Below the pieces are notes generated by a model that searched no databases, was not told the DNA's origin, and worked only from the letters and a program-made list of their open reading frames with translations. A DNA stretch of 64,000 nt, taken from assembly GCA_018700055.1 (NCBI GenBank), contig JABISL010000034.1, positions 1,560 through 65,559 of the forward strand, in the 5' to 3' direction. The DNA is from a bacterium (lineage in GTDB: Bacteria; Margulisbacteria; Marinamargulisbacteria; UBA817; JABISL01). Position numbers and translations under genes: made by a program. Numbering within the stretch: the stretch's first letter is position 1; the number at the start of each line of letters is the position of its first letter. Shown piece by piece: positions 3,191 through 56,213 of this stretch.

Positions 3191-4147
3191 ATGTCAGAAC
3201 AAGTCTATAATGATGTGCAGAACGTAGTCATAGTCGGATCAGGTCCAGCGGGTCATACTGCTGGGATTTATGCTGGTCGTGCATTATTGAGCCCCGTGAT
3301 GTTTGAAGGTGAGATGGCCGGTGGTGTTGCCGCAGGTGGTCAGCTGACCACAACTACTGATGTTGAAAACTATCCCGGATTTCCTGAAGGGGTTATGGGC
3401 CCGGATCTCATGTGGAAGATGCGTGAGCAGTCCATTAAATGTGGCACAACAATTATTACGAAGACCGTCGATTCAGTTGATTTTTCTAAGCAGCCATTTG
3501 AGTTAACGACACGTAAAGGTGTGGTAAAAGCCAAAACAGTTATTATTGCTACCGGAGCGACAGCAAAGAGATTAGGTATTCCAGGCGAAGACACTTATTG
3601 GCAGAAAGGCATGTCAGCTTGTGCTGTTTGTGATGGGGCGTTGCCTATTTTTCGTGAGAAACCATTGGTTGTTATTGGAGGAGGAGACTCTGCTGTAGAA
3701 GAGGCAGGGTACCTAACCAAATATGCAAGCAAAGTGTATCTCTTGGTTCGAAAAAATGAACTTAGAGCATCAAAGGTAATGCGTGAGAGAGCGATTGCCA
3801 ATGAGAAAATAGAGATCCTCTGGAATACAGAAGCTGTAGAAGCAACTGGTGGTAACTTGTTAGAGCAAGTGCGAGTGATAAACAATCAGACCAAAGAAGA
3901 GACTGTATTGGATGCGAGTGGATTATTCTATGCTATCGGACATGTTCCTAATACATCGTTCTTAGATGGCCAAATAACCCTAGATGCCGAAGGGTATATC
4001 GTGGTGTCAGAGCCAGGAACTACGAAAACCAATATCCCCGGTGTTTTTGCTTGTGGTGATGTCCAAGACAAAACCTACAGACAAGCAATAACCGCGGCGG
4101 GCTCAGGGTGTAAGGCTGCTTTAGAAGCAGAACGATACCTCGGGTAA
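3191..4147 (+). CDS. trxB: thioredoxin-disulfide reductase
   Basis: 318 aa. It has an N-terminal GSGPAGHTAG FAD-binding motif, the CAVCDGA redox-active disulfide motif and a GGGDSA NADPH motif. Confidence 0.9.
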   Translation: MSEQVYNDVQNVVIVGSGPAGHTAGIYAGRALLSPVMFEGEMAGGVAAGGQLTTTTDVENYPGFPEGVMGPDLMWKMREQSIKCGTTIITKTVDSVDFSKQPFELTTRKGVVKAKTVIIATGATAKRLGIPGEDTYWQKGMSACAVCDGALPIFREKPLVVIGGGDSAVEEAGYLTKYASKVYLLVRKNELRASKVMRERAIANEKIEILWNTEAVEATGGNLLEQVRVINNQTKEETVLDASGLFYAIGHVPNTSFLDGQITLDAEGYIVVSEPGTTKTNIPGVFACGDVQDKTYRQAITAAGSGCKAALEAERYLG

Positions 4148-4166: not shown

Positions 4167-4230
4167 TTTAGATTCGATTTTTGTCCTCGAGTTATTTGAA
4201 ACATCCCTCCGGGAAAACCGAATCTAGAAA
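4167..4230 (+). repeat. Structured intergenic repeat, copy A (TTTAGATTCGATTTTTGTCCTCG ... CCGGGAAAACCGAATCTAGAAA). It lies 20 nt after the trxB stop.
   Basis: It shares the cores TTTAGATTYGATTTTTGTYCTCG and GGRAAAMCCGAATCTA with copy B (34757-34820) and GTCCTCGA/CGGGAAAA with copy C (18305-18352). The outer arms TTTAGATTCG / CGAATCTAGA are inverted repeats. Confidence 0.5.
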
Positions 4231-4367
4231 TTTAAGCTGCGATGTTGAATAGAATGGGTCGAGGCTCGATTAACGCGTGGTTTTTTGTGAGGAGGTAGAT
4301 TCTCTTTGTCTTCGAAAGAAGAGTTAGCGTCTGGATTATTAGTTGAAGGGGGAAGTATGCCGTCATT

Positions 4368-5858: not shown

Positions 5859-6371
5859 CTATCGGATACTTAGTAGTTGAGCTAGTCGTTCAGGGGCGAC
5901 AGTGTGAATTGGTGGCATAGGTGGGTGGGCTATTTTTTTGTCGCTTTTTCTAGGAAATGAAGTAGCTGATGTAGGAAGGTTTTGGCTTGGAGGTGTGTTT
6001 TCTAATTGGTAGGGTCTTTCTGCACGAACGGCCTCACTTGTTTTTGCGGATAAGAGATCTTTTGCTTGGAGGGTTTGTTGTTCTATCTGCTGATCGGCAG
6101 AAGTAGGGATTAGGTCTTGCATTTCTTTTCTTTGAAACTCGAGTGCTCTTAAGATGTCTTTTTGTTCTAGAAGCTCTTTGCTTGGAATGGTTCGGCTATG
6201 GCCCAATATGTTAATTACGTTGGATAATTTCTGCTTAATAAACGAAACGGTTTCTTTTGAGTCTTGAGATAATGTTGAACGGGCTTCATTCGTCTCGCTA
6301 TTAGGCCCTTTTAAGGCAGACTTTTTGTCTGAATAAATTGAGAATGGAACAGTTAATGTTGGATTTAGCAT
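5859..6371 (-). CDS. hypothetical protein; first gene of the 3-gene operon
   Basis: 170-aa ORF with S/T/P/Q-rich composition. I recognise no motifs. Confidence 0.4.
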   Translation of the reverse strand: MLNPTLTVPFSIYSDKKSALKGPNSETNEARSTLSQDSKETVSFIKQKLSNVINILGHSRTIPSKELLEQKDILRALEFQRKEMQDLIPTSADQQIEQQTLQAKDLLSAKTSEAVRAERPYQLENTPPSQNLPTSATSFPRKSDKKIAHPPMPPIHTVAPERLAQLLSIR

Positions 6372-6375
6372 AAAG

Positions 6376-6412
6376 CACCTCGATAATTTAGTTATACTAA
6401 ATTATCGAGGTG
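6376..6412 (-). promoter_or_regulatory. Perfect 16-bp inverted repeat (CACCTCGATAATTTAG-TTATA-CTAAATTATCGAGGTG) ending 4 nt before the ATG of the 170-aa gene. It contains the SD GAGGTG in its 3-prime arm.
   Basis: Read directly at 6376-6412: cacctcgataatttag ttata ctaaattatcgaggtg. On the mRNA strand: CGAGGTG CTTT ATG. Confidence 0.55.
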
Positions 6413-7942: not shown

Positions 7943-7959
7943 TCTTGTCATCTAATTTT

Positions 7960-7996
7960 CCGCAGAGCTATCTGAAATGGCCCTGCGGAAAAAAAG
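7960..7996. terminator. Candidate bidirectional intrinsic terminator between the convergent fumC and the 8057-9373 gene
   Basis: ttttCCGCAGagctatctgaaatggccCTGCGGaaaaaaag. It has a 6-bp GC stem flanked by a T-run on one side and an A-run on the other. Confidence 0.4.
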
Positions 7997-8056
7997 AGTA
8001 AGATGCCTCGGCCTTCGAAGAATTAGAAGACAGTTAGAATTAAGAAGATTAAATTT

Positions 8057-10014: not shown

Positions 10015-10299
10015 TCAGGATTCCTCAAATGTTCCCAGTATTTCTATATTGATATCGGCATCTTGCTCCATAGATATATAATCATCCGCGAACATTTCGT
10101 CCAAATACCCATTTACTTCTGACTCAAGTGCCACCTGGGTATAGATATTGATAGATAGTACCAGCGCTAAGCAAAAGGCCAATGAGCCTATTAACTTGGG
10201 CCGGAACCATTGGGAAAAGGCAGGTTTCTTCACTTCTCTTTCGTTTAGAGTGTCATTTATTCGATACCATAATTGATTGGGTGTTTTATTGTCTAACAT
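10015..10299 (-). CDS. putative anti-sigma factor (single-pass membrane protein)
   Basis: 94 aa with one TM segment (LIGSLAFCLALVLSINIY). It sits immediately downstream of, and overlapping, the ECF sigma factor gene, which is the classic sigma/anti-sigma arrangement. Confidence 0.4.
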   Translation of the reverse strand: MLDNKTPNQLWYRINDTLNEREVKKPAFSQWFRPKLIGSLAFCLALVLSINIYTQVALESEVNGYLDEMFADDYISMEQDADINIEILGTFEES

Positions 10300-10842
10300 G
10301 TTGTCCTACCTCCTTTATATATACGTTTTTTAATTGTTTCTTTGCTCGGTTGATTCTTGATTTCACAGTGCCAATATTGATATTCAAAAGTTCTGCAATG
10401 CGTTCGTATGGGTGGTCTTCTAAAGTTTTCATAACCAAGCATATTCGATAATCTGGTTTTATCTGCGCTAAACATTTCATGATTACTGGGTCTGTAAATT
10501 CCAAATCGGGGAGATGATCTTCGGTTTTTCCACCCCAAAAAAAGAGCTGTTCTGTTTTTTGAGAAACGTTTGATTTCGCTTCAACTGATTCAGTGTGTGA
10601 TTTACCGCAATACGATAGATCCATGTGGTGAACTGCGAAGAAAAGTTATATTTTTGGCGAGCATCATAGATTTTTATATAAATATCGTGTGCTAAGTCTT
10701 CGGCCTCCTGAGTATTTCGAGTAAGTTTGACGACAACATTAAATATATAGCTGGATGTTGCTAAATAGATCTCATGGAAAGCGGATCTATTACCATTTTG
10801 AAAGGCGCGAATCGTATCATCTGATATCTGTATTGATTCCAT
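10286..10842 (-). pseudogene. ECF (sigma-70 family) RNA polymerase sigma factor, split into two overlapping frames by a 1-nt frame change in a homopolymer. It is either a pseudogene, a phase-variable gene or an assembly error.
   Basis: ORF 10483..10842 encodes sigma region 2 (FTTWIYRIAVNHTLNQLKR). ORF 10286..10624, in a different frame, encodes region 4 (ERIAELLNINIGTVKSRINRAKKQL). The frames cross in the A7 run at 10537-10543 and the T6 run at 10555-10560. Confidence 0.55.
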
Positions 10843-15827: not shown

Positions 15828-16772
15828 ATGAAGTGGGAAAAATGGACCGGGGTATTGATGGTTGTGTTTGCAGTAGTGTTTTCACCAGCACTATTTGCGG
15901 AAGGTCCTGTTGTTTATGTTCTAAAGCATAAGTCTCTTTCTGTTTATAACGAGACAGAGGCGGCTGTGGTGGCGGATTTGAAATTGGACTACACGGTTGT
16001 AACAGCGAATGTCACTCTTGATACGATTAACTCGGTGTCGAGAGCGATTCGGAAGAAAAAGGCTGTGGCAGTCGTTGCCATTGGGACTAAGGCAACAGCA
16101 ATGATTAAGAAGAAGGTTACGCGTATCCCAATTCTTTTTTGTATGGCGTTGCGACCTGTTAAGACCGGTTTGGTTCCTTCGCTTAAACGGCCTGGTCATA
16201 TGATTACCGGAATTTCATTGGATATTCCGGTTGAAGTCCAGTTTAAACGTATTCGGAAACTTTTTCCTTGGATCAACAGAATCGGTGTTTTATACACTCC
16301 AAATCAAGATGAAGCGTTGATAGCGGCTGCCAAAAAATCAGCTAAACGATATGGGTTTAAGTTGTATATTAAGCCAATCCATTCGCAGAGTCAGATTCAA
16401 CCGCAGCTTAAGGATCTTTTTCAGAAACAAATTGAGCTGCTATGGGCCATTCCTGATCAAAAAATATATTCCAAACAAAACCTAGAATATATTCTTTTGT
16501 CCCTCAACCGGTTCAAAATTCCTTTTATGGGATTGTCTCGCGCCTATTTAAGTATGGGTGCCTTTTTCTCATTTGATCCAGATCCGAGTGATATAGGGAA
16601 AAGAACAGCCGCTCTAGTGAAGCGAGTGGATCAAAAAGGGGTGTCGCCAGGCAAAATATCTATAAAGGGCCCTAAAAAAATTAACTATTCTATCAATCAA
16701 CGTGTGATGAAGCGGTTTGGGTTTCATCCGCCACAAGAGACATTGAGAAATGCTAAAGAGGTCTTCCAATAA
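15828..16772 (+). CDS. periplasmic substrate-binding protein of the ABC_sub_bind (PF04392-like) family
   Basis: 314 aa with a signal peptide. The fold pattern resembles the uncharacterised ABC-type periplasmic components often found upstream of cyclase or kinase sensors. Its stop overlaps the downstream cyclase start (ATGA). Confidence 0.45.
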   Translation: MKWEKWTGVLMVVFAVVFSPALFAEGPVVYVLKHKSLSVYNETEAAVVADLKLDYTVVTANVTLDTINSVSRAIRKKKAVAVVAIGTKATAMIKKKVTRIPILFCMALRPVKTGLVPSLKRPGHMITGISLDIPVEVQFKRIRKLFPWINRIGVLYTPNQDEALIAAAKKSAKRYGFKLYIKPIHSQSQIQPQLKDLFQKQIELLWAIPDQKIYSKQNLEYILLSLNRFKIPFMGLSRAYLSMGAFFSFDPDPSDIGKRTAALVKRVDQKGVSPGKISIKGPKKINYSINQRVMKRFGFHPPQETLRNAKEVFQ

Positions 16773-18280
16773 TGGGGAAGGTTCGGATAAGCCTACTCGT
16801 TAAGTTTGTTGTCGCCTTGTCTCTCCTGATTGTCATGACCTCCATGATTATCACTCAGTTTTTCTTGACCAAGCAAACTCAACTCTATAGTGAAACGCTA
16901 CAGATGCGGTCTGAAACAGTGACCAAATCATTGGTTCAACATGCTGAGTTAGGTGTGCTGATCGCAAATAAAGAGTTGTTGTTGTCGTTGCTTGGAAAAG
17001 TGATGAAAGATGAGAATGTTTTGTTTACTGCTATTTTGAATCCGAAAAAGCGAATTTTGGCGATGGATAAACAGAAAGCCTTGGACCTAAGACTGGTCAG
17101 TCGATTGATTAGCCGGCTGGATCTTAAACGACCAGAAAAAGGTGTGGTGTCTAAATTGGCGTCAATTAAGGAGCTCGACTACCCGGCGTTTTTTTTGATG
17201 TCGCCAGTGGTTAGTAAAGAAAAAGTAATATTGGATGAAGAGGAGCTATTGTTTTTTACTGACATGGCCGATTCAGTAGGTGGGCAAGTGATTGGTTATG
17301 GGTTAGTTGTGGTTTCTACTAAAGCGATAGCATTAGCCATAAAGCGAAACCGGACGATTAGTTTGTTGATTACCCTGGGCGTTATTGTATTGGGAATTGT
17401 AGTGGGGCTGTTGTTTACGAGCTTTATTATTAAGCCTGTAAAAGCCTTGGTTAGTGGCACTAAATTGGTGTCGGGAGGGGACTATTCTATTCAAGTGGAT
17501 GTGAGCTCAAAGGATGAGATTGGGGTGCTAACGTATTCGTTTAATACCATGGTTGATAAAATCCGAGTGCAGCAAGATCAGCTTATGGACTATAATCGAA
17601 CTTTGGAAGAAAAGGTAAAACAACGCACGTCAGAGTTGGCTGTCGAAAAAGAAAAATCTGATGAGTTGCTACTCAATATTTTACCGTTATCAATTGCTGA
17701 TCGTCTCAAAGCTAAAGAAGAAACCATTGCAGATAGTTTTGATGAGGTGACCGTTTTGTTTTCGGATATTGTTGGGTTTACCCCACTTTCTTCCAAAATA
17801 TCAGCTACAGAATTAGTTGTTTTGCTTAATGACATTATCTCCGAATTTGACCGTATGACGGAGCGGTTTGGGTTGGAAAAAATTAAGACCGTTGGGGATG
17901 CCTATATGGCAGTGAGTGGTGCGCCAGACTTTCGCTCAGATCATGCCGAGTGTGTAGCAAATATGGCGCTGGAAATGAGAGAGTTTCTGAGTGACTATCA
18001 TTCCAAAACAGGCGATGCGATTAGTATTCGAATAGGTATAAATACCGGACCTGTGGTTGCAGGTGTTATTGGCCTCAAGAAGTTCGTTTATGATCTTTGG
18101 GGCGACGCGGTTAATGTGGCTAGTCGTATGGAATCCAGCGGCGTTCCAGGCGAAGTTCAGATCTCAGAAAGTACTTATGCCCATATTAAGGACAAGTTTA
18201 TAACCGAAGATAGGGGCGAGATAGAAGTAAAAGGCAAAGGGAAAATGCAGGCATACCTCTTAAAAGGAACGCTCGGATAA
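16772..18280 (+). CDS. membrane-anchored class III adenylate/guanylate cyclase with a HAMP domain
   Basis: 502 aa with an N-terminal TM, a periplasmic region and a second TM. It has HAMP (ALVSGTKLVSGGDYSIQVDVSSKDEIGVLTYSFNTMVDKI) and CYCc-domain motifs (VTVLFSDIVGFTPLSS, KTVGDAYMAVSG, WGDAVNVASRMES). Confidence 0.85.
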   Translation: MGKVRISLLVKFVVALSLLIVMTSMIITQFFLTKQTQLYSETLQMRSETVTKSLVQHAELGVLIANKELLLSLLGKVMKDENVLFTAILNPKKRILAMDKQKALDLRLVSRLISRLDLKRPEKGVVSKLASIKELDYPAFFLMSPVVSKEKVILDEEELLFFTDMADSVGGQVIGYGLVVVSTKAIALAIKRNRTISLLITLGVIVLGIVVGLLFTSFIIKPVKALVSGTKLVSGGDYSIQVDVSSKDEIGVLTYSFNTMVDKIRVQQDQLMDYNRTLEEKVKQRTSELAVEKEKSDELLLNILPLSIADRLKAKEETIADSFDEVTVLFSDIVGFTPLSSKISATELVVLLNDIISEFDRMTERFGLEKIKTVGDAYMAVSGAPDFRSDHAECVANMALEMREFLSDYHSKTGDAISIRIGINTGPVVAGVIGLKKFVYDLWGDAVNVASRMESSGVPGEVQISESTYAHIKDKFITEDRGEIEVKGKGKMQAYLLKGTLG

Positions 18281-18304
18281 ATATTGGAAATATCTGCGTA
18301 TTAT

Positions 18305-18352
18305 TTAATGTTTTTGTCCTCGACGTATAGTAATACGCCTCCGGGAAAAAAA
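18305..18352 (+). repeat. Structured intergenic repeat, copy C (TTTTTGTCCTCGACGTATAGTAATACGCCTCCGGGAAAA). It lies 24 nt after the cyclase stop.
   Basis: It shares CGTATAGTAATACGCCT with copy B and TTTTTGTCCTCGA plus CCTCCGGGAAAA with copy A. Confidence 0.45.
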
Positions 18353-18360
18353 TAAAAAAA

Positions 18361-18456
18361 GCCTTGATCTTCCCAATATTTAAACCGAGCTGGGGAGGAG
18401 TTTTTCGGAAAACCCAGAAGCTGCCTTGATTTTCGGAAAATTTAAATCGATATTGG
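18361..18456 (+). repeat. Two imperfect 33-nt direct repeats (GCCTTGATYTTC..AATATTTAAAYCGA..TGG) separated by about 30 nt, in the convergent 3-prime intergenic region
   Basis: 18361-18393 gccttgatcttcccaatatttaaaccgagctgg versus 18423-18456 gccttgattttcggaaaatttaaatcgatattgg, about 75 percent identical. The CGGAAAAYY motif is also repeated in this region. Confidence 0.4.
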
Positions 18457-24338: not shown

Positions 24339-24366
24339 TTCATTTTCGAATTTGATAGCACGGAGA

Positions 24367-24394
24367 ACGGCTCTTTTGGGAGCCGTTCTTTTTG
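24367..24394 (+). terminator. Candidate rho-independent terminator after the porin gene. Alternatively it lies inside a Tat-like leader of the next ORF if that ORF starts at TTG 24352.
   Basis: ACGGCTC-ttttgg-GAGCCGT, a 7-bp GC-rich stem, followed by tctttttgtg. It lies 28 nt after the stop at 24338. Confidence 0.5.
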
Positions 24395-26723: not shown

Positions 26724-27356
26724 TTAGTTGGATATGTTGTTGAATCCAAAAGTAGGTGGCTGCATTTCACATTGCCCCCCACTGCCATCTATTTTTCCTG
26801 TACCATCAGTTACGAACTGACCTATAGTAGCTCCGGATACAACTAGATTAGAACTTAATTGGAATCCCTTGGTGGCATCAGATGAGGTAGTTGGTGCTTT
26901 CCATGGGGTTACACCATCGCCTCCACCTGTAGATGTAGATGCGGTGGATAGGTGAAGCCAAACCTTATTTTCAGTTCCGTCACAGGTTGTAGTGGAGCCA
27001 TCGATCGGGTTGATAACATCCTCTGATCCATTGTTGCCACATACATCAGACGTTTCATCTTCATCGGCAGTACAGGTTCCAGTAGTAGAAGTAGATGCGT
27101 ATTTAATGTTGTCACTCATTTCTATGATAACACAGTTATATGTTCCATCAGCGAGTTCCCCTGACCCAAAATCAGGGCTGTCGAGTACATTTTTGTATTC
27201 TGGATCGGTATTGTTTACAACAACGACCGGGTCAGTACAAAATGCGCTTTCAGAAACCGCAAATCGATAAACCTTAACTTTTAAAAATGCTGGATCTGCG
27301 CCGTTGACGAGCGTAGTAAATAGGATTGCTGTAATTAGTAATCCCCATATTTTCAT
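26724..27356 (-). CDS. secreted Cys-containing, T/S/G/D-rich hypothetical protein
   Basis: It has a signal peptide (MKIWGLLITAILFTTLVNGA) and six or more Cys in the mature part. I recognise no motifs. The start was chosen at the internal Met of track ORF 26724..27374. Confidence 0.3.
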   Translation of the reverse strand: MKIWGLLITAILFTTLVNGADPAFLKVKVYRFAVSESAFCTDPVVVVNNTDPEYKNVLDSPDFGSGELADGTYNCVIIEMSDNIKYASTSTTGTCTADEDETSDVCGNNGSEDVINPIDGSTTTCDGTENKVWLHLSTASTSTGGGDGVTPWKAPTTSSDATKGFQLSSNLVVSGATIGQFVTDGTGKIDGSGGQCEMQPPTFGFNNISN

Positions 27357-27403
27357 TTGTTGAACCCCTTTCAATTAAGACAATTGTTATGACTTGGCCT
27401 GAT

Positions 27404-27532
27404 TTAACTTCCGGCCCCTTTTAGTGTAAACGTGTTTGTGCTTTCTGGTGCTTGCGCACAAGATAGAACAGAAACAGTGACACCAACCCCAATGATGACC
27501 GCTAGCATTGTTAATACAGCTTGTTTGAACAT
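27404..27532 (-). CDS. unannotated 42-aa small ORF with a signal peptide / lipoprotein-like leader plus a 15-aa mature peptide
   Basis: My own translation: MFKQAVLTMLAVIIGVGVTVSVLSCAQAPESTNTFTLKGAGS. It has a hydrophobic leader ending VLSC (lipobox-like). It is below the ORF-track length cutoff. Confidence 0.3.
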   Translation of the reverse strand: MFKQAVLTMLAVIIGVGVTVSVLSCAQAPESTNTFTLKGAGS

Positions 27533-27602: not shown

Positions 27603-27640
27603 CGTTATTTACTCTTTTTCTGTCCTCGACCTTCGATAAA
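27603..27640 (+). repeat. Partial member (copy D) of the GTCCTCGA / CCTTCGATAA intergenic motif family
   Basis: ttctGTCCTCGACCTTCGATAAatgaaagggcagg. It shares GTCCTCGA with copies A and C, and CCT(C)CGATAA with the two SD-hairpins at 5728 and 6376. Confidence 0.3.
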
Positions 27641-29094: not shown

Positions 29095-30025
29095 AGCGCT
29101 GTAATGTTGTGCAAAAGAGGGTGTAGAGTGAAAGCTGAGTGGCCAAAAAGTTGTCTCGGGTATTGGTTATGTTTTCTACAGTTTCAGTGAAATAACTTGT
29201 GTTTGTAAGTAATATCTTTAAAAAGGAAAGTGTTTCTTGTTGAATCTTTGCTCTTACTTCTTTGGCGTCTGAATAAAAAAATAAGTTAAAGTGCATTTTT
29301 ATTTTGTCGATTAAGAATCGAATATCCTGGCTTGGAATTTGAAAAAACCCTTTGAGATTTACCATTTGCCCCTTGCTAGTTTTTAGTTCCATGTTCGCAG
29401 GGAAGAATTGTTGGATATGGAGATAAAGAGCGTTTAATTGTTCGCTTGGTAAGCTAGATAAGATGATAAAAAATAAATCTAAATCCTTGTTTTCACCGAT
29501 TGAACTAATCATTTGAACGGGGTTTTGGGTAAGAATATTAATCCGATTAATACTAGCTTCGAGATCATTGCTATATTTTTGAAATAGATGGACGAGAGAG
29601 GCGATGAAATCTCGGTTTAACTGGGCATTCTGTTTGGTTTTTGAGAAGACCTTATTAAAAAAATAGGATTGGAATTGTTTGTATGATTGGTCAATCTTTC
29701 CAAACGTAAATGACGAACTCATTTTGTTTTTCCACTGTATGGTAACCGTTTTACCTTTAGTGCTAATCCATTTGATATGGGTGTTCTCTAGGCCATCTAA
29801 TAGACTAAGTGCAGTCAAAAGCATTAGTTGTATAAACGTGACAGATTCAGGAGAGGACACAAATGAGGGCAGTTCAATTAGGTCTTTTTCTGTATTTAGA
29901 AAAGCTAAAAACTGAACTTGGAGCGGATTGTTTTTTTTAAATAATGGCTGAGCGTCACCCAGATGGGTGACGATGCTTTGAAGAATTGAAACAGACGCCG
30001 GCAGTGAAGTTGCTGAGCCGGACAC
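29087..30025 (-). CDS. hypothetical protein co-transcribed with cysteine desulfurase (overlapping by 8 nt)
   Basis: 312-aa ORF. I recognise no motifs. Confidence 0.35.
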   Translation of the reverse strand: MSGSATSLPASVSILQSIVTHLGDAQPLFKKNNPLQVQFLAFLNTEKDLIELPSFVSSPESVTFIQLMLLTALSLLDGLENTHIKWISTKGKTVTIQWKNKMSSSFTFGKIDQSYKQFQSYFFNKVFSKTKQNAQLNRDFIASLVHLFQKYSNDLEASINRINILTQNPVQMISSIGENKDLDLFFIILSSLPSEQLNALYLHIQQFFPANMELKTSKGQMVNLKGFFQIPSQDIRFLIDKIKMHFNLFFYSDAKEVRAKIQQETLSFLKILLTNTSYFTETVENITNTRDNFLATQLSLYTLFCTTLQRYV

Positions 30026-30028
30026 TAG

Positions 30029-30466
30029 TTATGATTTAGCGGCTGCCGGTGCTTTTTTAGCGGCTGCTTTTTTTGGAGCTGCTTTTTTAGCCGTTGTAGC
30101 TGCTGGCTTTTTTGGAGCTGCTTTTTTAGTTGTTGTAGCCGGTGCTTTTTTAGCGGCTGCTTTTTTCGGAGCTGCTTTTTTAGTCGCTGTAACTGGCGCT
30201 GGTGTAGTAGCTCCTTTGTTATTTGCAAGAGCAAGCTTAGATTTGGTTCTAGCTGCAGTATTTTTGTTCAAAATTCCTTTGCTAACACTTTTATCAATAA
30301 TGCTAAGCGTGTTTCTCACGATAGTTAGTTGATTGGCGTCTTTTGATTCAATCGCTGCGTATGCTGCCTTGATTGCAGATTTCATTTGAGTTTTGTTTGA
30401 AAGGTTGCGTGATCTGTTTCGCGCGTTCCGTTTAATGTCTTTTTTTGCTGCTTTAATATTTGCCAT
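30029..30466 (-). CDS. rpsT: 30S ribosomal protein S20 with a C-terminal histone-H1-like KAAP-repeat extension
   Basis: The N-terminal roughly 85 aa read MANIKAAKKDIKRNARNRSRNLSNKTQMKSAIKAA.. (S20). The C-terminal roughly 60 aa read TTPAPVTATKKAAPKKAAAKKAPATTTKKAAPKKPAATTAKKAAPKKAAAKKAPAAAKS, encoded by tandem DNA repeats at 30040-30200. Confidence 0.8.
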   Translation of the reverse strand: MANIKAAKKDIKRNARNRSRNLSNKTQMKSAIKAAYAAIESKDANQLTIVRNTLSIIDKSVSKGILNKNTAARTKSKLALANNKGATTPAPVTATKKAAPKKAAAKKAPATTTKKAAPKKPAATTAKKAAPKKAAAKKAPAAAKS

Positions 30467-31419: not shown

Positions 31420-32382
31420 ATGAAACCATTAGATTTTGAAAAACCATTAGATGAGTTATACGCCAAGATTGATGAGCTACGACGTTTGTCCGCAGAGGGG
31501 CAAGTGGATTTAAGTGATGAGATAGCTAGTATCGAAAAACGTGCCGAAAAATTGCGTAATGAAGTGTTTAGTAACCTAACGCCTCATCAAATTCTTCAAA
31601 TAGCACGACATCCGAATCGACCAGACACCTTTGGATTATCAATGTTGGTGTTTGATGATTTTGTTGAGCTTCATGGTGATAGACAGTTTCGTGATGATCC
31701 ATCTATTGTTGGTGGTATCGCTCAGTTAGGGACGCATCGCGTCATGGTGATTGGTCATCAAAAAGGGCATGATACGAAGGAAAAAATCTATCGTAACTTT
31801 GGAATGCCTCATCCTGAAGGGTATCGAAAAGCATTGCGATTAATGCATATGGCTGAAAAGTTTAATATGCCAATCGTTACATTTATTGATACCCCGGGTG
31901 CGTACCCTGGAAAAGAAGCTGAGGAACGTGGGCAGTCCGAAGCGATTGCGCGTAATTTGAGAGAAATGTCTGGCCTATCGGTTCCTGTAATTACGTTTGT
32001 TATAGGTGAAGGTGGGTCTGGTGGCGCTTTGGGAATTGCGGTGTCGAATCGGATATATATGCTGGAATATGCGGTTTATTCGGTGATTTCTCCTGAGGGA
32101 TGTGCATCGATTTTATTTAGAGATGCGGATCAAGCAAACTATGCTGCTGAAAAACTTAAAATTACAGCGGGAGATATATCGAATCTTGGTATTGGCGATG
32201 GCGTTTTGAAAGAACCCTTGGGTGGCGCACATAATGATTGGCCACATGTGTCTGAAACGATTCGGTCTAAAATCAATGAAGACCTTAAACGGTATGAGAC
32301 GATGTCGCCGGAAGAAGTGTTTCAAGAACGTTACGATAAATTCCGATCATTCGGGAAGTTTGAGGATCCCGTCAAAGCGTGA
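31420..32382 (+). CDS. accA: acetyl-CoA carboxylase carboxyltransferase alpha subunit
   Basis: 320 aa. It has the characteristic LDFEKPL..L...I..L N-terminus and the TFIDTPGAYPG motif. Confidence 0.9.
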   Translation: MKPLDFEKPLDELYAKIDELRRLSAEGQVDLSDEIASIEKRAEKLRNEVFSNLTPHQILQIARHPNRPDTFGLSMLVFDDFVELHGDRQFRDDPSIVGGIAQLGTHRVMVIGHQKGHDTKEKIYRNFGMPHPEGYRKALRLMHMAEKFNMPIVTFIDTPGAYPGKEAEERGQSEAIARNLREMSGLSVPVITFVIGEGGSGGALGIAVSNRIYMLEYAVYSVISPEGCASILFRDADQANYAAEKLKITAGDISNLGIGDGVLKEPLGGAHNDWPHVSETIRSKINEDLKRYETMSPEEVFQERYDKFRSFGKFEDPVKA

Positions 32383-34097
32383 AAACTAAAGCAGTCAAAT
32401 CACCTGATGCGGTTTGGCAAGCTTATCCTCAAAATATAGAGTTAGCCAAGTCCTTGGCGAAGACGTTGAATTGCCATGCGATCACTGCGCAACTTTTATT
32501 GAATAGAGGGATTCGATCGGTAACGGAAGCTAAGGCATTTTTGTTTCCAGAACTGGATGCCTATCAAACGCCTTTTCTCAGTGAGCCATTGGCGGCAGCA
32601 ATTGAATTGATTAGTGACGTTGTAGAATCAAAAGGGCCTGTATTTGTATATGGTGACTATGACGTAGATGGGGTTACATCAACGACTATTATGGTTGATA
32701 TTCTTAGACGCTTGGGTGTTCATGTAGATTATATGATTCCGGATCGTTTCAAAGATGGGTATGGCCTGGGAAAAAGTGCTGTTCAAAGAGTGTTGTTGGG
32801 TAACTATTCATTAATGATAGCTTTGGATTGTGGGATTAGTAATTGGCGTGAAATTGAGGTTATTCGCCAAGAAAAAGAGACAAAGGTTCTCATAATGGAT
32901 CATCATAAAACGCCTCAAAAATTACCGGATGCACAAGCCATTCTTAATCCAAGAGATCAACCAGAAGGCCACCCGTTTGGTGAATTGTGTACGGCGGGCA
33001 TTGTTTATTGTTTTTGGATGGAAGCAATCAAAGCGAAGGGTTGGGATTTGGATATTACCGATTATCTTGATGTTGCTGCTCTTGGGACAGTGGCAGATAT
33101 GATGCCGCTTTCTGGACAAAATAGAGTGCTTACAATGTTTGGATTGAAACAGCTTTCTTCTCGAAACAGAGATAGTTTACGGATACTTTTGGAAAGAGTG
33201 GGGTTTAAAAATTCTCAAGTGACTTCTCGCGATATTGGATTTGTGATTGCTCCTAGATTAAATGCGGCGGGTCGTTTGGTTCATGCGAAGGCGGGGGTTG
33301 AACTTCTTCTTGCTGGAACTACGGAAGAAATGTTTCGGATATCAGGTGAGTTAGATGGACTTAACCAAAGGCGAAGAGAAATGGGACAGTTGATTTTAGC
33401 GGGGGCAGAAGCTCAAATAAAAGCGGATCCATCTGTTTTGGACGCCCATGTGGTGGCCTTGTCTGGTGAGGATTGGCACACCGGAATTATTGGCATAACA
33501 GCGGCTCAATTGGTCCGAAAACATGGTCGCCCTGCAGTAATGATCACCGAAGAGTCAGGGATTTGTAGAGGATCTGCTAGAAGCGTGCCTGGAGTAGACA
33601 TCTATCAGGTTTTGAAGGCTTGTGATGGTCATTTTGAAACATTTGGAGGCCATGCAGGTGCCGCTGGTTTTAGTATGTTGCCAGAGAAGGTTCCGGCTTT
33701 TTTGCTTGCTTTGCGGGAGATTTCTTTGACGATGATTTCATCAGGGGATTTAGTTCCTGTTTTGGATATAGATATTGCTGTGGACCCTAAAGATATGACT
33801 CTGGATCTTGTATCTGATTTAGCGAAGATGGAGCCATTTGGTATGGGAAATCCGCAACCTGTTTTCTATACAAATCAACTTCGTCCCGAGGACTTTCGAA
33901 CAGTGGGTGACGGCTCACATTTAAAGGCGAGTTTTCGATCCTTAGATGGCAAGACAGTTGTGGATGCCATTGGATTTGGTATGGCCGACAAGCTTCCTAA
34001 ACTGTATGAAGATCAAGTTGAGTTAGCCTTTCATTTGGAGACAAATGAGTGGGGCGGTGTGGTTGTGCCTCAGTTGAGGTTGGTAGGTGTTCGATAG
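32379..34097 (+). CDS. recJ: single-stranded-DNA-specific exonuclease RecJ
   Basis: 572 aa with DHH motifs (VYGDYDVDGVTST, DHH at MDHHK) and a DHHA1 domain (GGHAGAAGF). Confidence 0.85.
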   Translation: MKTKAVKSPDAVWQAYPQNIELAKSLAKTLNCHAITAQLLLNRGIRSVTEAKAFLFPELDAYQTPFLSEPLAAAIELISDVVESKGPVFVYGDYDVDGVTSTTIMVDILRRLGVHVDYMIPDRFKDGYGLGKSAVQRVLLGNYSLMIALDCGISNWREIEVIRQEKETKVLIMDHHKTPQKLPDAQAILNPRDQPEGHPFGELCTAGIVYCFWMEAIKAKGWDLDITDYLDVAALGTVADMMPLSGQNRVLTMFGLKQLSSRNRDSLRILLERVGFKNSQVTSRDIGFVIAPRLNAAGRLVHAKAGVELLLAGTTEEMFRISGELDGLNQRRREMGQLILAGAEAQIKADPSVLDAHVVALSGEDWHTGIIGITAAQLVRKHGRPAVMITEESGICRGSARSVPGVDIYQVLKACDGHFETFGGHAGAAGFSMLPEKVPAFLLALREISLTMISSGDLVPVLDIDIAVDPKDMTLDLVSDLAKMEPFGMGNPQPVFYTNQLRPEDFRTVGDGSHLKASFRSLDGKTVVDAIGFGMADKLPKLYEDQVELAFHLETNEWGGVVVPQLRLVGVR

Positions 34098-34138
34098 TAT
34101 TGCCCATCGACTCTATAGCAGCTATAGTAGTCCACTGT

Positions 34139-34214
34139 CGGGGTGTGGCGCAGTTGGTAGCGCACCAGTTTTGGGAACTGGGGGCCGGAAGTTCGAGTCT
34201 TCTCACCCCGACCA
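34139..34214 (+). tRNA. tRNA-Pro (anticodon UGG)
   Basis: Folded by hand into a 76-nt cloverleaf. It has a 7-bp acceptor stem (CGGGGTG/CACCCCG), a D-arm GCGC-AGTTGGTA-GCGC, an anticodon stem CCAGT/ACTGG with loop TTTGGGA (UGG at positions 34-36, G37), a T-arm GGAAG-TTCGAGT-CTTCT and the ACCA end. Confidence 0.85.
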
Positions 34215-34246
34215 TTAGGAAAAATGATAGACTATAGTGTAAGGAA

Positions 34247-34738
34247 TTGGAGATCAATATGAATTTAAAAGACGTTAAAAAGCTTATTAAACTAGTAGAA
34301 GACGCCAATATTACTGCCTTATCTATAGAAGAAGATGGGAAGAAGATAGAAGTCAAAAAAGATTCTATTCATGCATCAGCACCGTCTTATTTGGCCCCTC
34401 AGCCAGCTCCGGTTATGACGGCACCAGTTGCTGCGGCTCCTTTAGCTGAGACGCCTCAAGCAGCTCCTGCTTCGGTTGAGCCAGTGAATGATTCGAACTT
34501 AGTGGCAATTAAGTCCCCCATGGTAGGCACGTTTTATGCGTCTTCTAGCCCTGAAACACCGGTTTATGTGAAAGAAGGGTCTTCTGTTAAGGAAGGCGAT
34601 GTTGTTTGTATGGTTGAGGCTATGAAGCTGTTTAATGAAATTGAGTCTGAAGTGTTAGGAACTATCGAAAAGATTTTGGTAGAGAATGCATCGCCAGTAG
34701 AGTATGGCCAAGACCTTTACCTCGTTAGACTGTCATAA
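34247..34738 (+). CDS. accB: acetyl-CoA carboxylase biotin carboxyl carrier protein
   Basis: 163 aa with an Ala/Pro-rich linker and a biotinyl domain containing the EAMKLFNEIES motif. No accC is adjacent. Confidence 0.85.
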   Translation: MEINMNLKDVKKLIKLVEDANITALSIEEDGKKIEVKKDSIHASAPSYLAPQPAPVMTAPVAAAPLAETPQAAPASVEPVNDSNLVAIKSPMVGTFYASSSPETPVYVKEGSSVKEGDVVCMVEAMKLFNEIESEVLGTIEKILVENASPVEYGQDLYLVRLS

Positions 34739-34756
34739 ATTTCGCGAATTGAACGA

Positions 34757-34820
34757 TTTTAGATTTGATTTTTGTTCTCGCCGTATAGTAATACGCCTGT
34801 AGGAAACCCGAATCTAAAAG
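34757..34820 (+). repeat. Structured intergenic repeat, copy B (TTTTAGATTTGATTTTTGTTCTCGCCGTATAGTAATACGCCTGTAGGAAACCCGAATCTAAAAG). It lies 19 nt after the accB stop.
   Basis: It has outer inverted arms TTTTAGATTTG / CGAATCTAAAAG and an inner hairpin CGTAT-AGTA-ATACG. It is homologous to copies A and C. Confidence 0.5.
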
Positions 34821-34953
34821 CCCGGAAAATACGATATTCTTTACGCATGAAGAGCGTGTGTAGCTTATGTGCATAGGATACCCCCTCCCCTATAAAATGT
34901 TTAAAAAGTGTGAAAACTGGGTACTCTATTAATTACGTAGGGGGGGACTTACG

Positions 34954-35124
34954 ATGAATAAGAACGCGCGTCTAGCGATGATGCGTCATTTTCTCGAAGC
35001 TCAACGTATTGGGGAGGAAGCGGAGTTACACGCACAGTCAAATGTGCATAACGCTGATCTTGATCACCAAGACATGGAATTTCGTGTGAATGATCGCACA
35101 GAAGCATCAAACGCCACAGTTTAG
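34954..35124 (+). CDS. unannotated 56-aa small ORF with a strong RBS
   Basis: AGGGGGGGActtacgATG, then MNKNARLAMMRHFLEAQRIGEEAELHAQSNVHNADLDHQDMEFRVNDRTEASNATV, ending TAG at 35122-35124. It is followed by the hairpin AGACAAC...GTTGTCT. It is below the ORF-track cutoff. Confidence 0.3.
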   Translation: MNKNARLAMMRHFLEAQRIGEEAELHAQSNVHNADLDHQDMEFRVNDRTEASNATV

Positions 35125-35167
35125 ACTGTGCCGGGGACTAGACAACACCGAGTACAATCGGGGTTGT

Positions 35168-37351
35168 CTACCCTGATTTGGGGCGGAAAACAGCGGTGAC
35201 GTCGGGAACGGCGCCCACGATTTTTTTTAGATGATTCAGGTGATCCATATCTTTCAGTTCTAGTTGGATACGAATCATAGCGCGTCCATCACTAAATACT
35301 TTACTGCTAGCTTGTAGAATATTGGTTTTGGATTCTGAGATTCGGTTTACGATGTCTTTTAATAGACCCATTCTGTCATACCCTTCAATTTCTAGGGTGA
35401 CTGGGAAAACACGTTCGCTGGATTTGATTTCCCACTCGACATCGATCAATCTATGGCGATCTTTTTCAGAGAGCTTGCTTATGTTTTGGCAACACGTTCG
35501 ATGAACGGCTACGCCAAATCCCATAGTGACAAAGCCGATAACATCGTCTCCTGGTAGTGGATGGCAACATTTGGCCAAATACACTTCAATGTTTTCTTCT
35601 CCGAGAACGCGAATTCCATAAATGGACTCCTTGCCAGTTTGGGCGGGTGTTTTGTAGTCCAACGATTGAAGGACTTCGGCATTGCTCGGTTGATCAAGTT
35701 TGCCAGTGATTTTGTCTAAATGTCGGATGACGCCTGGTACGCCGATATCTCCATTTGCAATAGCTAGGTAAAGGGTCTCTAGTGAGTCAAACTGATGTTT
35801 ATCTAAAAAGGGTTGGATATTTGGTCTGTTTGCTAAATCCTTAGCAACATATCCGGCGGCAACTAAGGCTTTTTCCAGTTCATGCTTGGCACGATCCTTT
35901 TTTTCGTTGGCATCTTGGCGGCGGAACCACTGTTTGATTTTGCTTTGTGCATAACTGGTTTTGACAAACTCAAGCCAGTCTAGTTTAGGGTTGGCGGTTT
36001 TGCCTTGTATTATTTCAAGGCGATCGCCATTTTGAAGGGTGTAGTGAAGCGTGACGATGTGACCATTTATTTTGGCGCCTTGGATACTGTTTCCGACTTC
36101 AGTATGGACTCTATAGGCAAAATCAATAGGCGTAGCACCTTTAGGCAAAACAAAGAGTTCTCCTGCGGGAGAAAAAACGAAGACCTCGGCGGCAAAAAGA
36201 TCGATTTTGAGGGTTTGGATATAAGAGTCTGGATCATCTTGTTGGGCAGATAAAATTTGTCGTAACCAAGCAAAGTCGGCTTGGTATGTCGTTGCATCTG
36301 ATTTTTTCCCTTCTTTGTATTTCCAGTGAGCGGCGACCCCATACTCTGCAACCTCATCCATTTCTTTGGTTCGAATTTGTATTTCTACAGGGCGTCCTTC
36401 ATGGCCGATAACGGTGGTATGCAAAGATTGATACATATTGGTTTTTGGTAAGGCAATATAGTCCTTAATTCGACCGGCTACGGGGGTAAATTTTGCATGA
36501 ATAATTCCGAGGGTTTCATAACAATTTGCAAGGGTATCTACAATGATGCGAATGCCAAGCAAGTCATACATTTCGCTGTAGTCATCCCCTTTTTGGATTT
36601 TTCGGAAAATACTAAAAAAGTGTTTGGGCCGTCCGGTCACAACACCTTTTACCGGACTTGAATCCAATAGGATCTCTACCTGTTTGATCATTTTTTTGAT
36701 ATATAATTCGCGCTCCTCTCTTTTGGAGGCAACAGCAGATCGAATAGATTTGAACTCTTCAGGAAATAAATACATCATCGACAAATCTTCTAATTCCCAT
36801 TTAAGGCTTCCCATACCCAATCGATAGGCAAGTGGCGCAAAGATTTCTAATGTTTCTTTGGCGATTCGTTGTTGTTTGTCAGGGCGTAAATGTTTGAGGG
36901 TGCGCATATTATGTAAGCGGTCGGCGAGTTTAATGATAACGACTCGTAAATCCTCTGCCATGGCCAAAAACATTCGTCGATAGTTTTCTGCTTGAGCTTC
37001 TTCAGAGGTGCCAAAATAAACTTTTCCCAATTTGGTGACACCTTTGATTAAGTGGGTTACTTCAGAACCAAACTCAGACAAAATTTCGGATTCTTTGGCG
37101 TTGGTATCTTCCAAAACATCATGGAGGAGGGCTGCAGCGATAGTATCTCGCCCTTGGTTTTGTTCTGCCAAAATAATCCCTACTTCTAAGGGGTGTGTAA
37201 TATAGGGTTTTCCAGATTTACGAATTTGGTTGGTGTGCCAATGATCAGCGAACTCATAAGCGGAGCGGATGAATTGAATATCCTCAGGCGGCATTGTATC
37301 GCCAAAGCAGTTAATTAAGGTATCGATTGTTGGCGACTCAGACATACCCAC
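35168..37351 (-). CDS. spoT: bifunctional (p)ppGpp synthetase/hydrolase of the RelA/SpoT family
   Basis: 727 aa. It has the HD hydrolase motif (HPLEVGIILAE...LLHDVLEDT), a synthetase domain, and TGS and ACT-like C-terminal regions. Confidence 0.9.
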   Translation of the reverse strand: MGMSESPTIDTLINCFGDTMPPEDIQFIRSAYEFADHWHTNQIRKSGKPYITHPLEVGIILAEQNQGRDTIAAALLHDVLEDTNAKESEILSEFGSEVTHLIKGVTKLGKVYFGTSEEAQAENYRRMFLAMAEDLRVVIIKLADRLHNMRTLKHLRPDKQQRIAKETLEIFAPLAYRLGMGSLKWELEDLSMMYLFPEEFKSIRSAVASKREERELYIKKMIKQVEILLDSSPVKGVVTGRPKHFFSIFRKIQKGDDYSEMYDLLGIRIIVDTLANCYETLGIIHAKFTPVAGRIKDYIALPKTNMYQSLHTTVIGHEGRPVEIQIRTKEMDEVAEYGVAAHWKYKEGKKSDATTYQADFAWLRQILSAQQDDPDSYIQTLKIDLFAAEVFVFSPAGELFVLPKGATPIDFAYRVHTEVGNSIQGAKINGHIVTLHYTLQNGDRLEIIQGKTANPKLDWLEFVKTSYAQSKIKQWFRRQDANEKKDRAKHELEKALVAAGYVAKDLANRPNIQPFLDKHQFDSLETLYLAIANGDIGVPGVIRHLDKITGKLDQPSNAEVLQSLDYKTPAQTGKESIYGIRVLGEENIEVYLAKCCHPLPGDDVIGFVTMGFGVAVHRTCCQNISKLSEKDRHRLIDVEWEIKSSERVFPVTLEIEGYDRMGLLKDIVNRISESKTNILQASSKVFSDGRAMIRIQLELKDMDHLNHLKKIVGAVPDVTAVFRPKSG

Positions 37352-37359
37352 ATTGTACC

Positions 37360-37956
37360 TTAGATCAATGCGTCTTGAATGAGTATTTTGGCTTGTTGTA
37401 ACGCAATATGTCGATGCGATAAGGCGTTTTTTTCTTGGGAGCTCATTTGGGCAAACGTTCTGTCGTCGCCTTCAGGGATAAAAACAGCGTCATAGCCAAA
37501 TCCATTGTCTCCGACTAGATCGGGACTAATATGGCCGCGAATAATGCCAGATGTCGTTTGGATCGCGTTGTCCGGAAACCGAATGGCGATTACGCATTGA
37601 AACTGGGCATCACGATTCCCGGTGTGATGGAGCTCTTTCAGAAGTTTATGGCAGAGTTCTTCTTTGCTTGCGTTTTCACCTGCATACCGAGCGGAATAAA
37701 TGCCTGGTGCACCGTCTAGGATATCCACTTCTAATCCCGAGTCATCAGCAACAAGAATGGTGTTGGCTTTAAGGGAAAAAGCGGTGACTTTTTTTATTGC
37801 ATTTTCTTCAAATGTGAGTCCATCTTCAATGATAGTTACAGGGTTGGGATAAATGTCTTTGTAAGGTGAAACAGAGACGGGCAAATCGGATAAAAGTGAT
37901 GTCATTTCGTGACACTTATTTGCATTGTTTGTTGCTAATACGATTTGATGGGTCAT
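37360..37956 (-). CDS. rdgB: non-canonical purine NTP pyrophosphatase (RdgB/Ham1 family)
   Basis: 198 aa. It has the LATNNANKCHEM N-terminal motif and Ham1-like blocks. Confidence 0.8.
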   Translation of the reverse strand: MTHQIVLATNNANKCHEMTSLLSDLPVSVSPYKDIYPNPVTIIEDGLTFEENAIKKVTAFSLKANTILVADDSGLEVDILDGAPGIYSARYAGENASKEELCHKLLKELHHTGNRDAQFQCVIAIRFPDNAIQTTSGIIRGHISPDLVGDNGFGYDAVFIPEGDDRTFAQMSSQEKNALSHRHIALQQAKILIQDALI

Positions 37957-56046: not shown

Positions 56047-56213
56047 AATGGTAGCTTCTTCCGTTTAAATAGATGGTATGACTTGGCCTTTATAGTATAG
56101 GGAAAACGACTATTATGCACCCTTTATTTGTAGTAGATCCACTTTGACCTTCGGCAAAGGTGGATCACGGCTGCAATTAGATCAATCCTCCTTCGCTTTT
56201 GTTTCCTTACTAA

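Follow-up and report, generated by a model that had tools for sequence, protein, structure and literature searches.

Non-coding foldback repeats just past stop codons in a deep-branching Margulisbacteria-like lineage

Three genes in the stretch of DNA analysed here (64 kb, hereafter the window) are each followed, shortly past the stop codon, by an imperfect hairpin, which raises the question of whether these hairpins are copies of one element and, if so, what kind of element it is. A first-pass annotation, made from the sequence alone, had grouped them as three copies (A, B, and C) of a REP-like or miniature structured 3′ element, and had offered as possible roles a terminator or mRNA stabiliser, a protein-binding site, or a decayed MITE. 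The evidence base for the family as described below is five distinct sequences: A, B, and C from the window, and one sequence each from two contigs of other organisms, referred to here as L003 and L054. The window has a G+C content of 40-44% and a positive GC skew (+0.1 to +0.24). The closest proteins to those of the window are at most 77% identical for trxB and at most 55% for RelA, with the best named RelA match being that of Candidatus Marinamargulisbacteria at 52%, and the window therefore comes from a deep-branching lineage without close relatives.

Reading the window sequence confirmed the positions of A, B, and C and the sequence blocks they had been said to share. Pairwise Smith-Waterman comparisons between the three copies gave z values of 10-16, with none of 500 shuffles reaching the observed scores. 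A covariance model (R1) built from A, B, C, and one outside copy was run over the 64-kb window and scored A at 87.1, B at 82.4, and C at 76 bits (E of 1e-16 to 1e-19, with A at 1e-19), whereas the runner-up match in the window reached 16.6 bits with filters off. At the level of short words, the 12-mer TTTTTGTYCTCG has six matches with at most one mismatch where 1.28 are expected (0/100 shuffles reach six), and the 17-mer CGTATAGTAATACGCCT has two exact matches where 0.01 are expected. The grouping of A, B, and C as one repeat family thus withstands the shuffling control. Identical counterparts of all three are present in independent assemblies from other samples (A in ENA contig L001, B in JGI contig L007, and C in JGI contig L004), and the copies are therefore not assembly artefacts. 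The distance from stop codon to copy, previously given as 19-24 nt, was measured as 18-24 nt, the largest value belonging to C. The copies and the candidate relatives discussed below are listed in Table 1.

Table 1. Repeat copies and candidate relatives in the window
Feature	Coordinates	Strand	Description
Copy A	4167..4230	+	64-nt imperfect hairpin; 19 nt past the stop of a trxB-like gene (3191-4147; Pyr_redox_2)
Copy B	34757..34820	+	64-nt imperfect hairpin; 18 nt past the stop of an accB-like gene (34247-34738; Biotin_lipoyl)
Copy C, full unit	18278..18381	+	Foldback of about 105 nt; the gene upstream encodes a HAMP+Guanylate_cyc (class-III, adenylate) cyclase (16772-18280)
Possible partial copy D	27604..27630	+	Left half only: TTATTTACTCTTTTTCTGTCCTCGAC; similarity confined to the left half of C
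Possible second truncated left half	4296..4318	+	In the same gap as A; TAGATTC..TCTTTGTCTTCGA; from inverted repeat I2 and sequence reading
Fumarase hairpin	7951..7997	+	Directly 3′ of the fumarase stop; TTTTCCGCAG...CTGCGGAAAA

Two further regions had been proposed as degenerate relatives, and they fared differently. The region at 56075-56110 showed no relationship to the family in alignment tests (z 0-0.9). Candidate D gave a local z of 7.3 against C and an alignment score of 31 against a window-wide background maximum of 29, drew no covariance-model call in the window scan, and sits in a gap between minus-strand genes, where it would be antisense to local transcription; judged by its sequence, it would be a borderline relative. 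We would like to note that a 13-mer, TATGACTTGGCCT, is common to 27388-27400 and 56077-56089, and that its minus-strand form (AGGCCAAGTCATA) lies roughly 15-30 nt upstream of two minus-strand starts (those of the gene at 26724-27374 and of a small ORF starting near 56048), so that the shared 13-mer may be a common promoter or regulator site. An unannotated minus-strand ORF at 27404-27532 would encode a 42-aa lipoprotein-like peptide (MFKQAVLTMLAVIIGVGVTVSVLSC...). The possible truncated left half in the gap that holds A is not significant alone, its alignment score being at the background level.

The hairpin behind the fumarase gene is very stable (folding z -6.9), resembles the inner segment of A (alignment z 5 against A as a whole), and has the same layout as the repeat family, its stem being preceded by a U-run and followed by an A-run, with no U-tail. 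Nevertheless, its membership is not demonstrable, as it scores 16.6 bits (E 0.18) with the covariance model and its alignment score of 24 equals the 99th percentile of the background. This inverted-terminator layout may be the usual gene-end shape in this organism. The submotif YCGGRAAAAYC, which had been described as recurring and taken as a hint of a protein-binding site, has a single occurrence in the window, inside A. A looser form, YCGGRAAAW, occurs seven times where 7.1 are expected, and this chance level leaves the argument for a protein site from a recurring submotif unsupported.

The two shorter copies share their outer arms, which in A read TAGATTCGATTTT and AAAACCGAATCTA around a centre of TTTTTGTCCTCGA...CCTCCGGGAAAA. 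As had been described, these arms form inverted repeats, here measured as 13-16 nt long and 81-92% complementary, and B and C both contain the inner hairpin CGTAT-AGTA-ATACG; A carries the segment AGTTATTTGAAACATC in its place. Copy C proved longer than first annotated. The segment given for it, 18305-18352, is only the core of a palindrome of about 105 nt (about 18278-18381), whose full extent was recognised with the L054 unit as a guide. The outer arm of C (TAAATATTGG / CCAATATTTA) overlaps the TAA stop of the cyclase gene, and inside it lie the blocks CTGCGT (18294-18299), the core TTTTTGTCCTCGACGTATAGTAATACGCCTCCGGGAAAA (18311-18349), and GCCTTG (18361-18366). Near C, by eye, the right arm GCCTTGATCTTCCCAATATTTAAACCGAG (18357-18385) recurs about 67 nt downstream (18424-18452) as GCCTTGATTTTCGGAAAATTTAAATCGAT, with 23 of 29 bases the same, and ATATTGGAA recurs at 18281 and 18452; this recurrence may be the remnant of a second nested or adjacent element.

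Further copies were sought outside the window, and two were found. An exact pattern requiring both core halves was scanned against 241 million metagenome records and returned B and C again (sample Ga0209775), chance-like matches at 15-25 bits, and one convincing homologue, L003, at 68 bits. The same scan did not recover copies of this organism from beyond the window, while B and C were recovered from a second sample. An exact-pattern scan of 185,579 species genomes gave only chance-like matches and one ambiguous site in Rhodococcus chondri (L017), where the match lies beside a tRNA terminator. As the pattern required TTTTTG and RGGAAA, where the L054 copy has TTTG and GGTAAA, the counts from public collections are lower bounds. 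A match on contig L006 has flanks that can pair like the arms of the element, yet it is antisense inside an ORF, and we grouped it with the chance-like matches. Plasmids, phages, and viral contigs searched by blastn and pattern scans yielded neither the element nor an IS carrying it, a viral match (L058) being chance-like and located in a coding region. A literature search for the core string retrieved nothing beyond primers and one coincidental match to an Obelisk sequence.

The L003 contig is from Verrucomicrobiales, has a G+C content of 62%, and carries its copy in sense orientation, with a cobW-like gene on one side and the gene for an amino-acid ABC permease on the other. The block measures about 195 nt, has inverted ends CTTATTCATGAA and TTCATGAATAAA, and folds as a long hairpin. 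In 18 related contigs, whose permeases are 81-93% identical, the cobW-permease spacer is 9-22 nt long; the block of about 195 nt is found in L003 alone, bordered on both sides by sequence collinear with the relatives, and the covariance model found no copies in about 230 kb of sequence from these relatives. The absence of the block from 18 relatives therefore indicates a recent gain of the element at this locus. We considered the possibility that the segment is a riboswitch or leader of the L003 amino-acid ABC transporter, and rejected it given that the whole segment is missing in the 18 relatives.

The second outside copy was found by scanning contigs of the organisms with the closest RelA. 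The organism with the most similar RelA (55% identity) carries it 3′ of relA on contig L054, and it is also present on contig L055 (36.8 bits, E about 1e-6). In L054 the unit is a 111-nt near-perfect foldback whose first three bases are the TGA stop of relA and whose ends are a perfect 15-nt inverted repeat (TGAAATTTAAGACAA / TTGTCTTAAATTTCA). The element is missing between relA and ham1 in Marinamargulisbacteria and in the P0250 contig, where the two genes are 1-28 nt apart, and a further relative (L028), which is syntenic with the window around copy A (trxB, one gene, and fumC), leaves 14 nt between trxB and the next gene and lacks a copy there. Two independent Logan assemblies stop exactly at the right end of the foldback (L054 11172-11282 and L055 4626-4736), a pattern suggestive of an element that either is present more than once in that genome or disrupts assembly graphs. 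The G+C content of the carriers is 41% for the Margulisbacteria-like organism, 47% for its relative, and 62% for the verrucomicrobium. By sequence comparison, the family reaches other phyla with a nearly invariant centre, a feature that the first-pass annotation did not include.

With these copies in hand, the full unit can be described as a foldback of about 105-111 nt with an outer inverted repeat abutting or overlapping the upstream stop, variable arms that stay paired, and a strongly conserved centre. C, L054, and L003 have three blocks in common at fixed spacing, namely CTGCGT, TTTGTCCTCGA-CGTAT(loop)ATACG-CCTSCGG, and GCCTTG, and in the predicted fold CTGCGT lies opposite GCCTTG, forming an internal loop. 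The consensus of the centre is CTGCGT ... TTTGTYCTCG-A-[CGTAT-loop-ATACG]-CCTNNRG ... GCCTTG, while A and B are a shorter subfamily with arms of their own. Comparison between organisms gives 82-92% identity for the centre and 41-47% for the arms and termini. Even so, the arms remain paired: of the cells in the five-sequence alignment, 81% form pairs, and both sides have changed in 11 of the 22 pairs, with a four-sequence alignment giving the same picture. None of 500 shuffles reach the observed pairing or covariation, and slid controls reach 32-58%. Compensatory changes across copies, which the first-pass annotation had proposed as a check on the fold, are therefore present.

Within the window, A and B are 60% identical in the arms and 65% in the centre, and the centre of C is 92% identical to that of L054 and 78% to that of A. 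The arms are common to A and B, whereas the inner hairpin is common to B, C, L003, and L054. The shared arms of A and B, together with a centre of C that is nearer to L054 than to A, therefore indicate a mosaic family with at least two subfamilies. The inner hairpin differs in length by 2 nt between copies, which shifts any reading frame, and the element is thus non-coding; a 28-codon ORF on the minus strand of L003 was considered as a conserved small ORF and ruled out, since C has no start codon and the frame shifts. Folding of the window copies is modestly better than that of shuffles (z -1.4 to -3.1), the full unit of C giving z -3.3 on the plus strand and -4.5 on the minus strand and the L054 unit -5.7 and -8.7. 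Neither strand is consistently the better folder, as assignments by folding energy (for A, -16.1 on the plus strand and -21.7 on the minus strand) or by counts of G-U pairs are inconsistent across copies.

All five copies (A, B, C, L003, and L054) have the orientation of the gene upstream, on its sense strand, and these upstream genes (trxB, accB, the cyclase gene, relA, and the cobW-like gene) are functionally unrelated. A, C, and the fumarase hairpin occupy convergent gaps just past stops, B is likewise 3′ of a stop, and A and C have no same-strand gene downstream in the window. Among the approximately 45 proteins encoded in the window there is no transposase, integrase, RAYT (Y1_Tnp, PF01797), or HUH enzyme. 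Rfam searched over the whole window at the gathering threshold returned only a tRNA-Pro, and in E-value mode on the A, B, and L003 regions it returned nothing but noise at E>2. In the relatives (L054, L056, and the P0250 contig), recJ, relA, and ham1 are adjacent on one strand. At 32379-37956 of the window, recJ is followed by the tRNA-Pro (34139-34214), accB, and copy B, with ham1 followed by relA on the opposite strand, and this altered order points to a local rearrangement with a breakpoint in the gap that holds B. Downstream of B there is also an unannotated plus-strand ORF of 56 aa (34954-35124), and if it is real, the gap is not strictly convergent.

Elsewhere in the window, we observed three further features. 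An ECF-type sigma factor on the minus strand (10286-10842) is read as two overlapping ORFs in different frames, with Sigma70_r2 in 10483-10842 and Sigma70_r4_2 in 10286-10624; it could be a frameshifted pseudogene, a sequencing error, or a case of programmed frameshifting. A divergent gap holds a perfect 17-bp inverted repeat at 6376-6412 (CACCTCGATAATTTAGT-ata-ACTAAATTATCGAGGTG); it lies 4 nt ahead of the start of the minus-strand gene 5859-6371 and probably serves as an operator or as a hairpin that controls translation. The gene for ribosomal protein S20 (30029-30466, minus strand, with a Pfam match over residues 2-81) has a C-terminal extension of about 60 residues encoded by five copies of an 88-nt direct repeat (30006-30225), with starts 15-39 nt apart and rich in GCTGCT and T-runs on the plus strand; judging from the sequence, the tail is probably Lys/Ala-rich.

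What, then, are the repeats? The reading we favour, in which our belief and our doubt are about equally balanced, is that they are a low-copy, non-autonomous, non-coding foldback mobile element of the MITE/REPIN kind. It is favoured by the inverted ends (13-16 nt in A and B, TAAATATTGG/CCAATATTTA in C, a perfect 15 nt in L054, and 11-12 nt in L003), by the filled and empty sites at the L003 locus, by mosaic modules like those of BIMEs, and by the lack of both an Rfam match and a U-tract. The observations behind it are direct: the copies form one family, compensatory changes have preserved the foldback, the element was gained at one locus and is absent from the matching sites of relatives, and it has neither coding capacity nor a terminator tail. 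The earlier REP-like or decayed-MITE interpretation thus holds as far as a non-coding foldback family 3′ of stop codons and an insertion relative to 18 contigs are concerned, while its terminator role and its submotif do not. As to the annotation as a whole, the family of A, B, and C stands, the relative at 56075-56110 and the recurrence of YCGGRAAAAYC fall, and the region at 27604-27630 stays borderline.

Several points count against a mobile element, namely the lack of a resolved target-site duplication, the lack of an autonomous parent element among the sequences found, the lack of a transposase, integrase, or RAYT among the approximately 45 window proteins, and the low apparent copy number. 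The end sequences (AAATTT, AATATT, and TTCATGAA) are themselves palindromic, so that a direct repeat is indistinguishable from an inverted one, also in comparison with the empty sites of the L003 relatives; a candidate 8-mer duplication in L003 is itself a palindrome. The window has three solid copies in 64 kb, and the metagenome scan, which recovered B and C but nothing of this organism from beyond the window, suggests that copies are few, although its pattern is blind to L054-type variants. In addition, the centre is conserved and the arms vary, opposite to a classical MITE; selection on a structured RNA or a recognition site would give such a distribution. We also tried the idea that the element supplies the stop codon, given that A and C share CTCGGRTAAAT as the last two codons and stop (Leu-Gly-stop), and rejected it: trxB homologues natively end in ...RFLG(E), and the similarity of the flanks is weak (z 0.7-3.1).

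If the repeats are such a mobile element, we infer that its movement would depend on an enzyme acting in trans, whose gene lies elsewhere and which recognises the folded centre. By analogy with IS200/IS605-RAYT systems, the likeliest model would be a transposase or recombinase that recognises single-stranded hairpins. Copies would survive only where they are harmless, that is, in the short spacer just behind a stop codon. Once inserted, the element would be transcribed with the 3′ UTR and form a hairpin of about 60-110 nt, which could slow 3′-exonucleases as a by-product, as REP and BIME hairpins do, without causing intrinsic termination.

A structured RNA selected for its own sake is the strongest alternative, although we hold it to be unlikely. 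The conserved centre would then be a functional RNA (a 3′-UTR cis element, a protein-binding rod, an sRNA, or an unrecognised ribozyme- or riboswitch-like motif), with arms free to vary while paired and the foldback serving as its vehicle or scaffold. The three blocks at fixed spacing, the gap in identity between core and arms, the 11 compensated pairs, the placement of five copies out of five on the sense strand, and several plus-strand G-U pairs (U-G in UCCU/GGGA and in the TTTG/CGAA arm of B) are all as such an RNA would have them. However, the L003 copy is an insertion lacking in 18 related contigs, the element is not retained at orthologous sites in relatives, the upstream genes have no function in common, and two of the window copies (A and C) have no same-strand downstream gene there. 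Folding energy favours neither strand and exceeds that of shuffles only modestly in the window copies, Rfam gives no match, and the exact pattern found a single convincing extra copy in the species genomes and metagenome records combined. Resemblances to hairpin, hammerhead, and twister ribozymes, guanidine-III, lambda boxB, and the K-turn, as well as to the CRESS-virus nonanucleotide, tmRNA/tRNA T-arm fragments, and anti-Shine-Dalgarno mimicry, were considered and rejected, as the bases essential to each motif vary among the five copies.

A more far-reaching proposal takes the centre of about 45 nt (UUUGUYCUCG-A-[hairpin]-CCUNNRG plus the CUGCGU/GCCUUG internal loop) to be a structured nucleic-acid module under purifying selection in at least two phyla (Margulisbacteria-like and Verrucomicrobiales), riding a foldback that settles at gene ends. 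Such a module would be a recombination or transposition site of a new, folded single-strand class, or else a mobile RNA motif of a new kind, such as a protein-binding rod or a ribozyme. We regard this proposal as improbable, on a level with the structured RNA considered above.

Somewhat less probable again is a site that acts at the DNA level, where a site-specific recombinase or an HUH-type enzyme would recognise the folded single strand following the logic of attC sites or IS200/IS605 ends, with an orientation set by the direction of replication and not by transcription. All window copies are plus-oriented, including the borderline and antisense D. The GC skew lies between +0.11 and +0.24 in every 4-kb bin from 1 to 64000 regardless of gene strand, which places the whole window on one replication arm with an unusually strong strand asymmetry. 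The location at gene ends and an imperfect palindrome of 60-110 nt recall the geometry of attC, and a conserved centre with free arms suits recognition of a structure plus a few bases. Against this, three solid copies give the orientation a p of about 0.1 at best, direct reading finds the attC boxes RYYYAAC...GTTRRRY absent from the ends, the upstream genes are core housekeeping genes and not cassettes, and the window has no integrase or HUH gene. This explanation overlaps with that of a mobile element and differs from it mainly in the enzyme and in the cause of the orientation.

An intrinsic (factor-independent) or bidirectional terminator shared by convergent genes and duplicated between loci would account for hairpins placed in convergent gaps just past stops, and we consider it very unlikely. 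The repeat is not an intrinsic terminator: on neither strand does a U-run follow the stem in any copy. Each copy has a U-run ahead of the stem and an A-run behind it, the two runs pairing together, and the stems are AT-rich and interrupted. A terminator scan calls none of the copies yet calls canonical terminators, for example at 24362-24391, so that the terminator role suggested in the first-pass annotation is not borne out. Moreover, the L003 element lies inside an operon that is tightly spaced in relatives, where a strong terminator would be polar. Finally, chance similarity or an assembly artefact, which might be raised given that the window and all homologues come from metagenome assemblies and that L054 and L055 both end right at the element, is already refuted by the independent assemblies with identical A, B, and C, and is further opposed by E values of 1e-16 to 1e-19 and by the collinear flanks of the L003 insert.

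Among the closest known systems are the REP/BIME elements and REPINs of Enterobacteria and Pseudomonas, which are mobilised by RAYT, an IS200/IS605-like Y1 transposase. Similar to the window repeats, these are short, non-coding, extragenic imperfect palindromes that typically lie just past stops, in convergent gaps or between the genes of operons, are transcribed as 3′-UTR hairpins, and combine modules in a mosaic manner, with REPINs being foldbacks of about 100 nt. In contrast, REPs occur in tens to hundreds of copies with a species- or genus-specific sequence, whereas the family described here apparently has a low copy number and a centre common across phyla. A, B, C, L003, and L054 have no GTAG-type head at the foot of the hairpin, the approximately 45 window proteins include no RAYT, and the arms of the repeats are not small palindromes themselves. 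MITEs such as Correia/NEMIS of Neisseria, ERIC, RUP, Nezha, and Chunjie are likewise small, non-autonomous, and AT-rich with terminal inverted repeats, form long hairpins once transcribed, and show presence/absence polymorphism among related genomes, as L003 does against its 18 relatives. MITE termini, however, are conserved while the interior drifts, and here the interior is conserved while the termini differ between A/B, C, L003, and L054; neither a target-site duplication nor a parent IS was found for the present family.

The attC sites of integrons are also imperfect palindromes (57-141 nt) that begin at or over the preceding stop codon, and they are recognised as a folded single strand in which structure outweighs sequence. 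Nevertheless, the repeat is not an attC site: it has no R''(RYYYAAC) or R'(GTTRRRY) boxes, attC is conserved at its ends and not at its centre, and the genes upstream are housekeeping genes and not promoterless cassettes; the repeats form no array, and the window encodes no integrase. Intrinsic terminators and 3′ stabiliser hairpins share the position past a stop codon, but the window repeats have no U-tract, their stems are long, interrupted, and AT-rich, and their shared sequence is one of descent and not of convergence. Read plainly as a MITE- or REP-like family, the repeats are a routine annotation item that explains three enlarged intergenic gaps and cautions against calling such hairpins terminators. 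The conserved centre across phyla makes the family somewhat more interesting than an ordinary repeat family, as a centre that is 82-92% identical across organisms between arms that are about 40% identical yet paired implies that the element passed between phyla very recently or that a folded recognition module is under strong selection. In either case, the family would offer a way towards an enzyme that mobilises DNA in uncultured lineages, and would be a clear example of a mobile element targeting the first bases past a stop codon.
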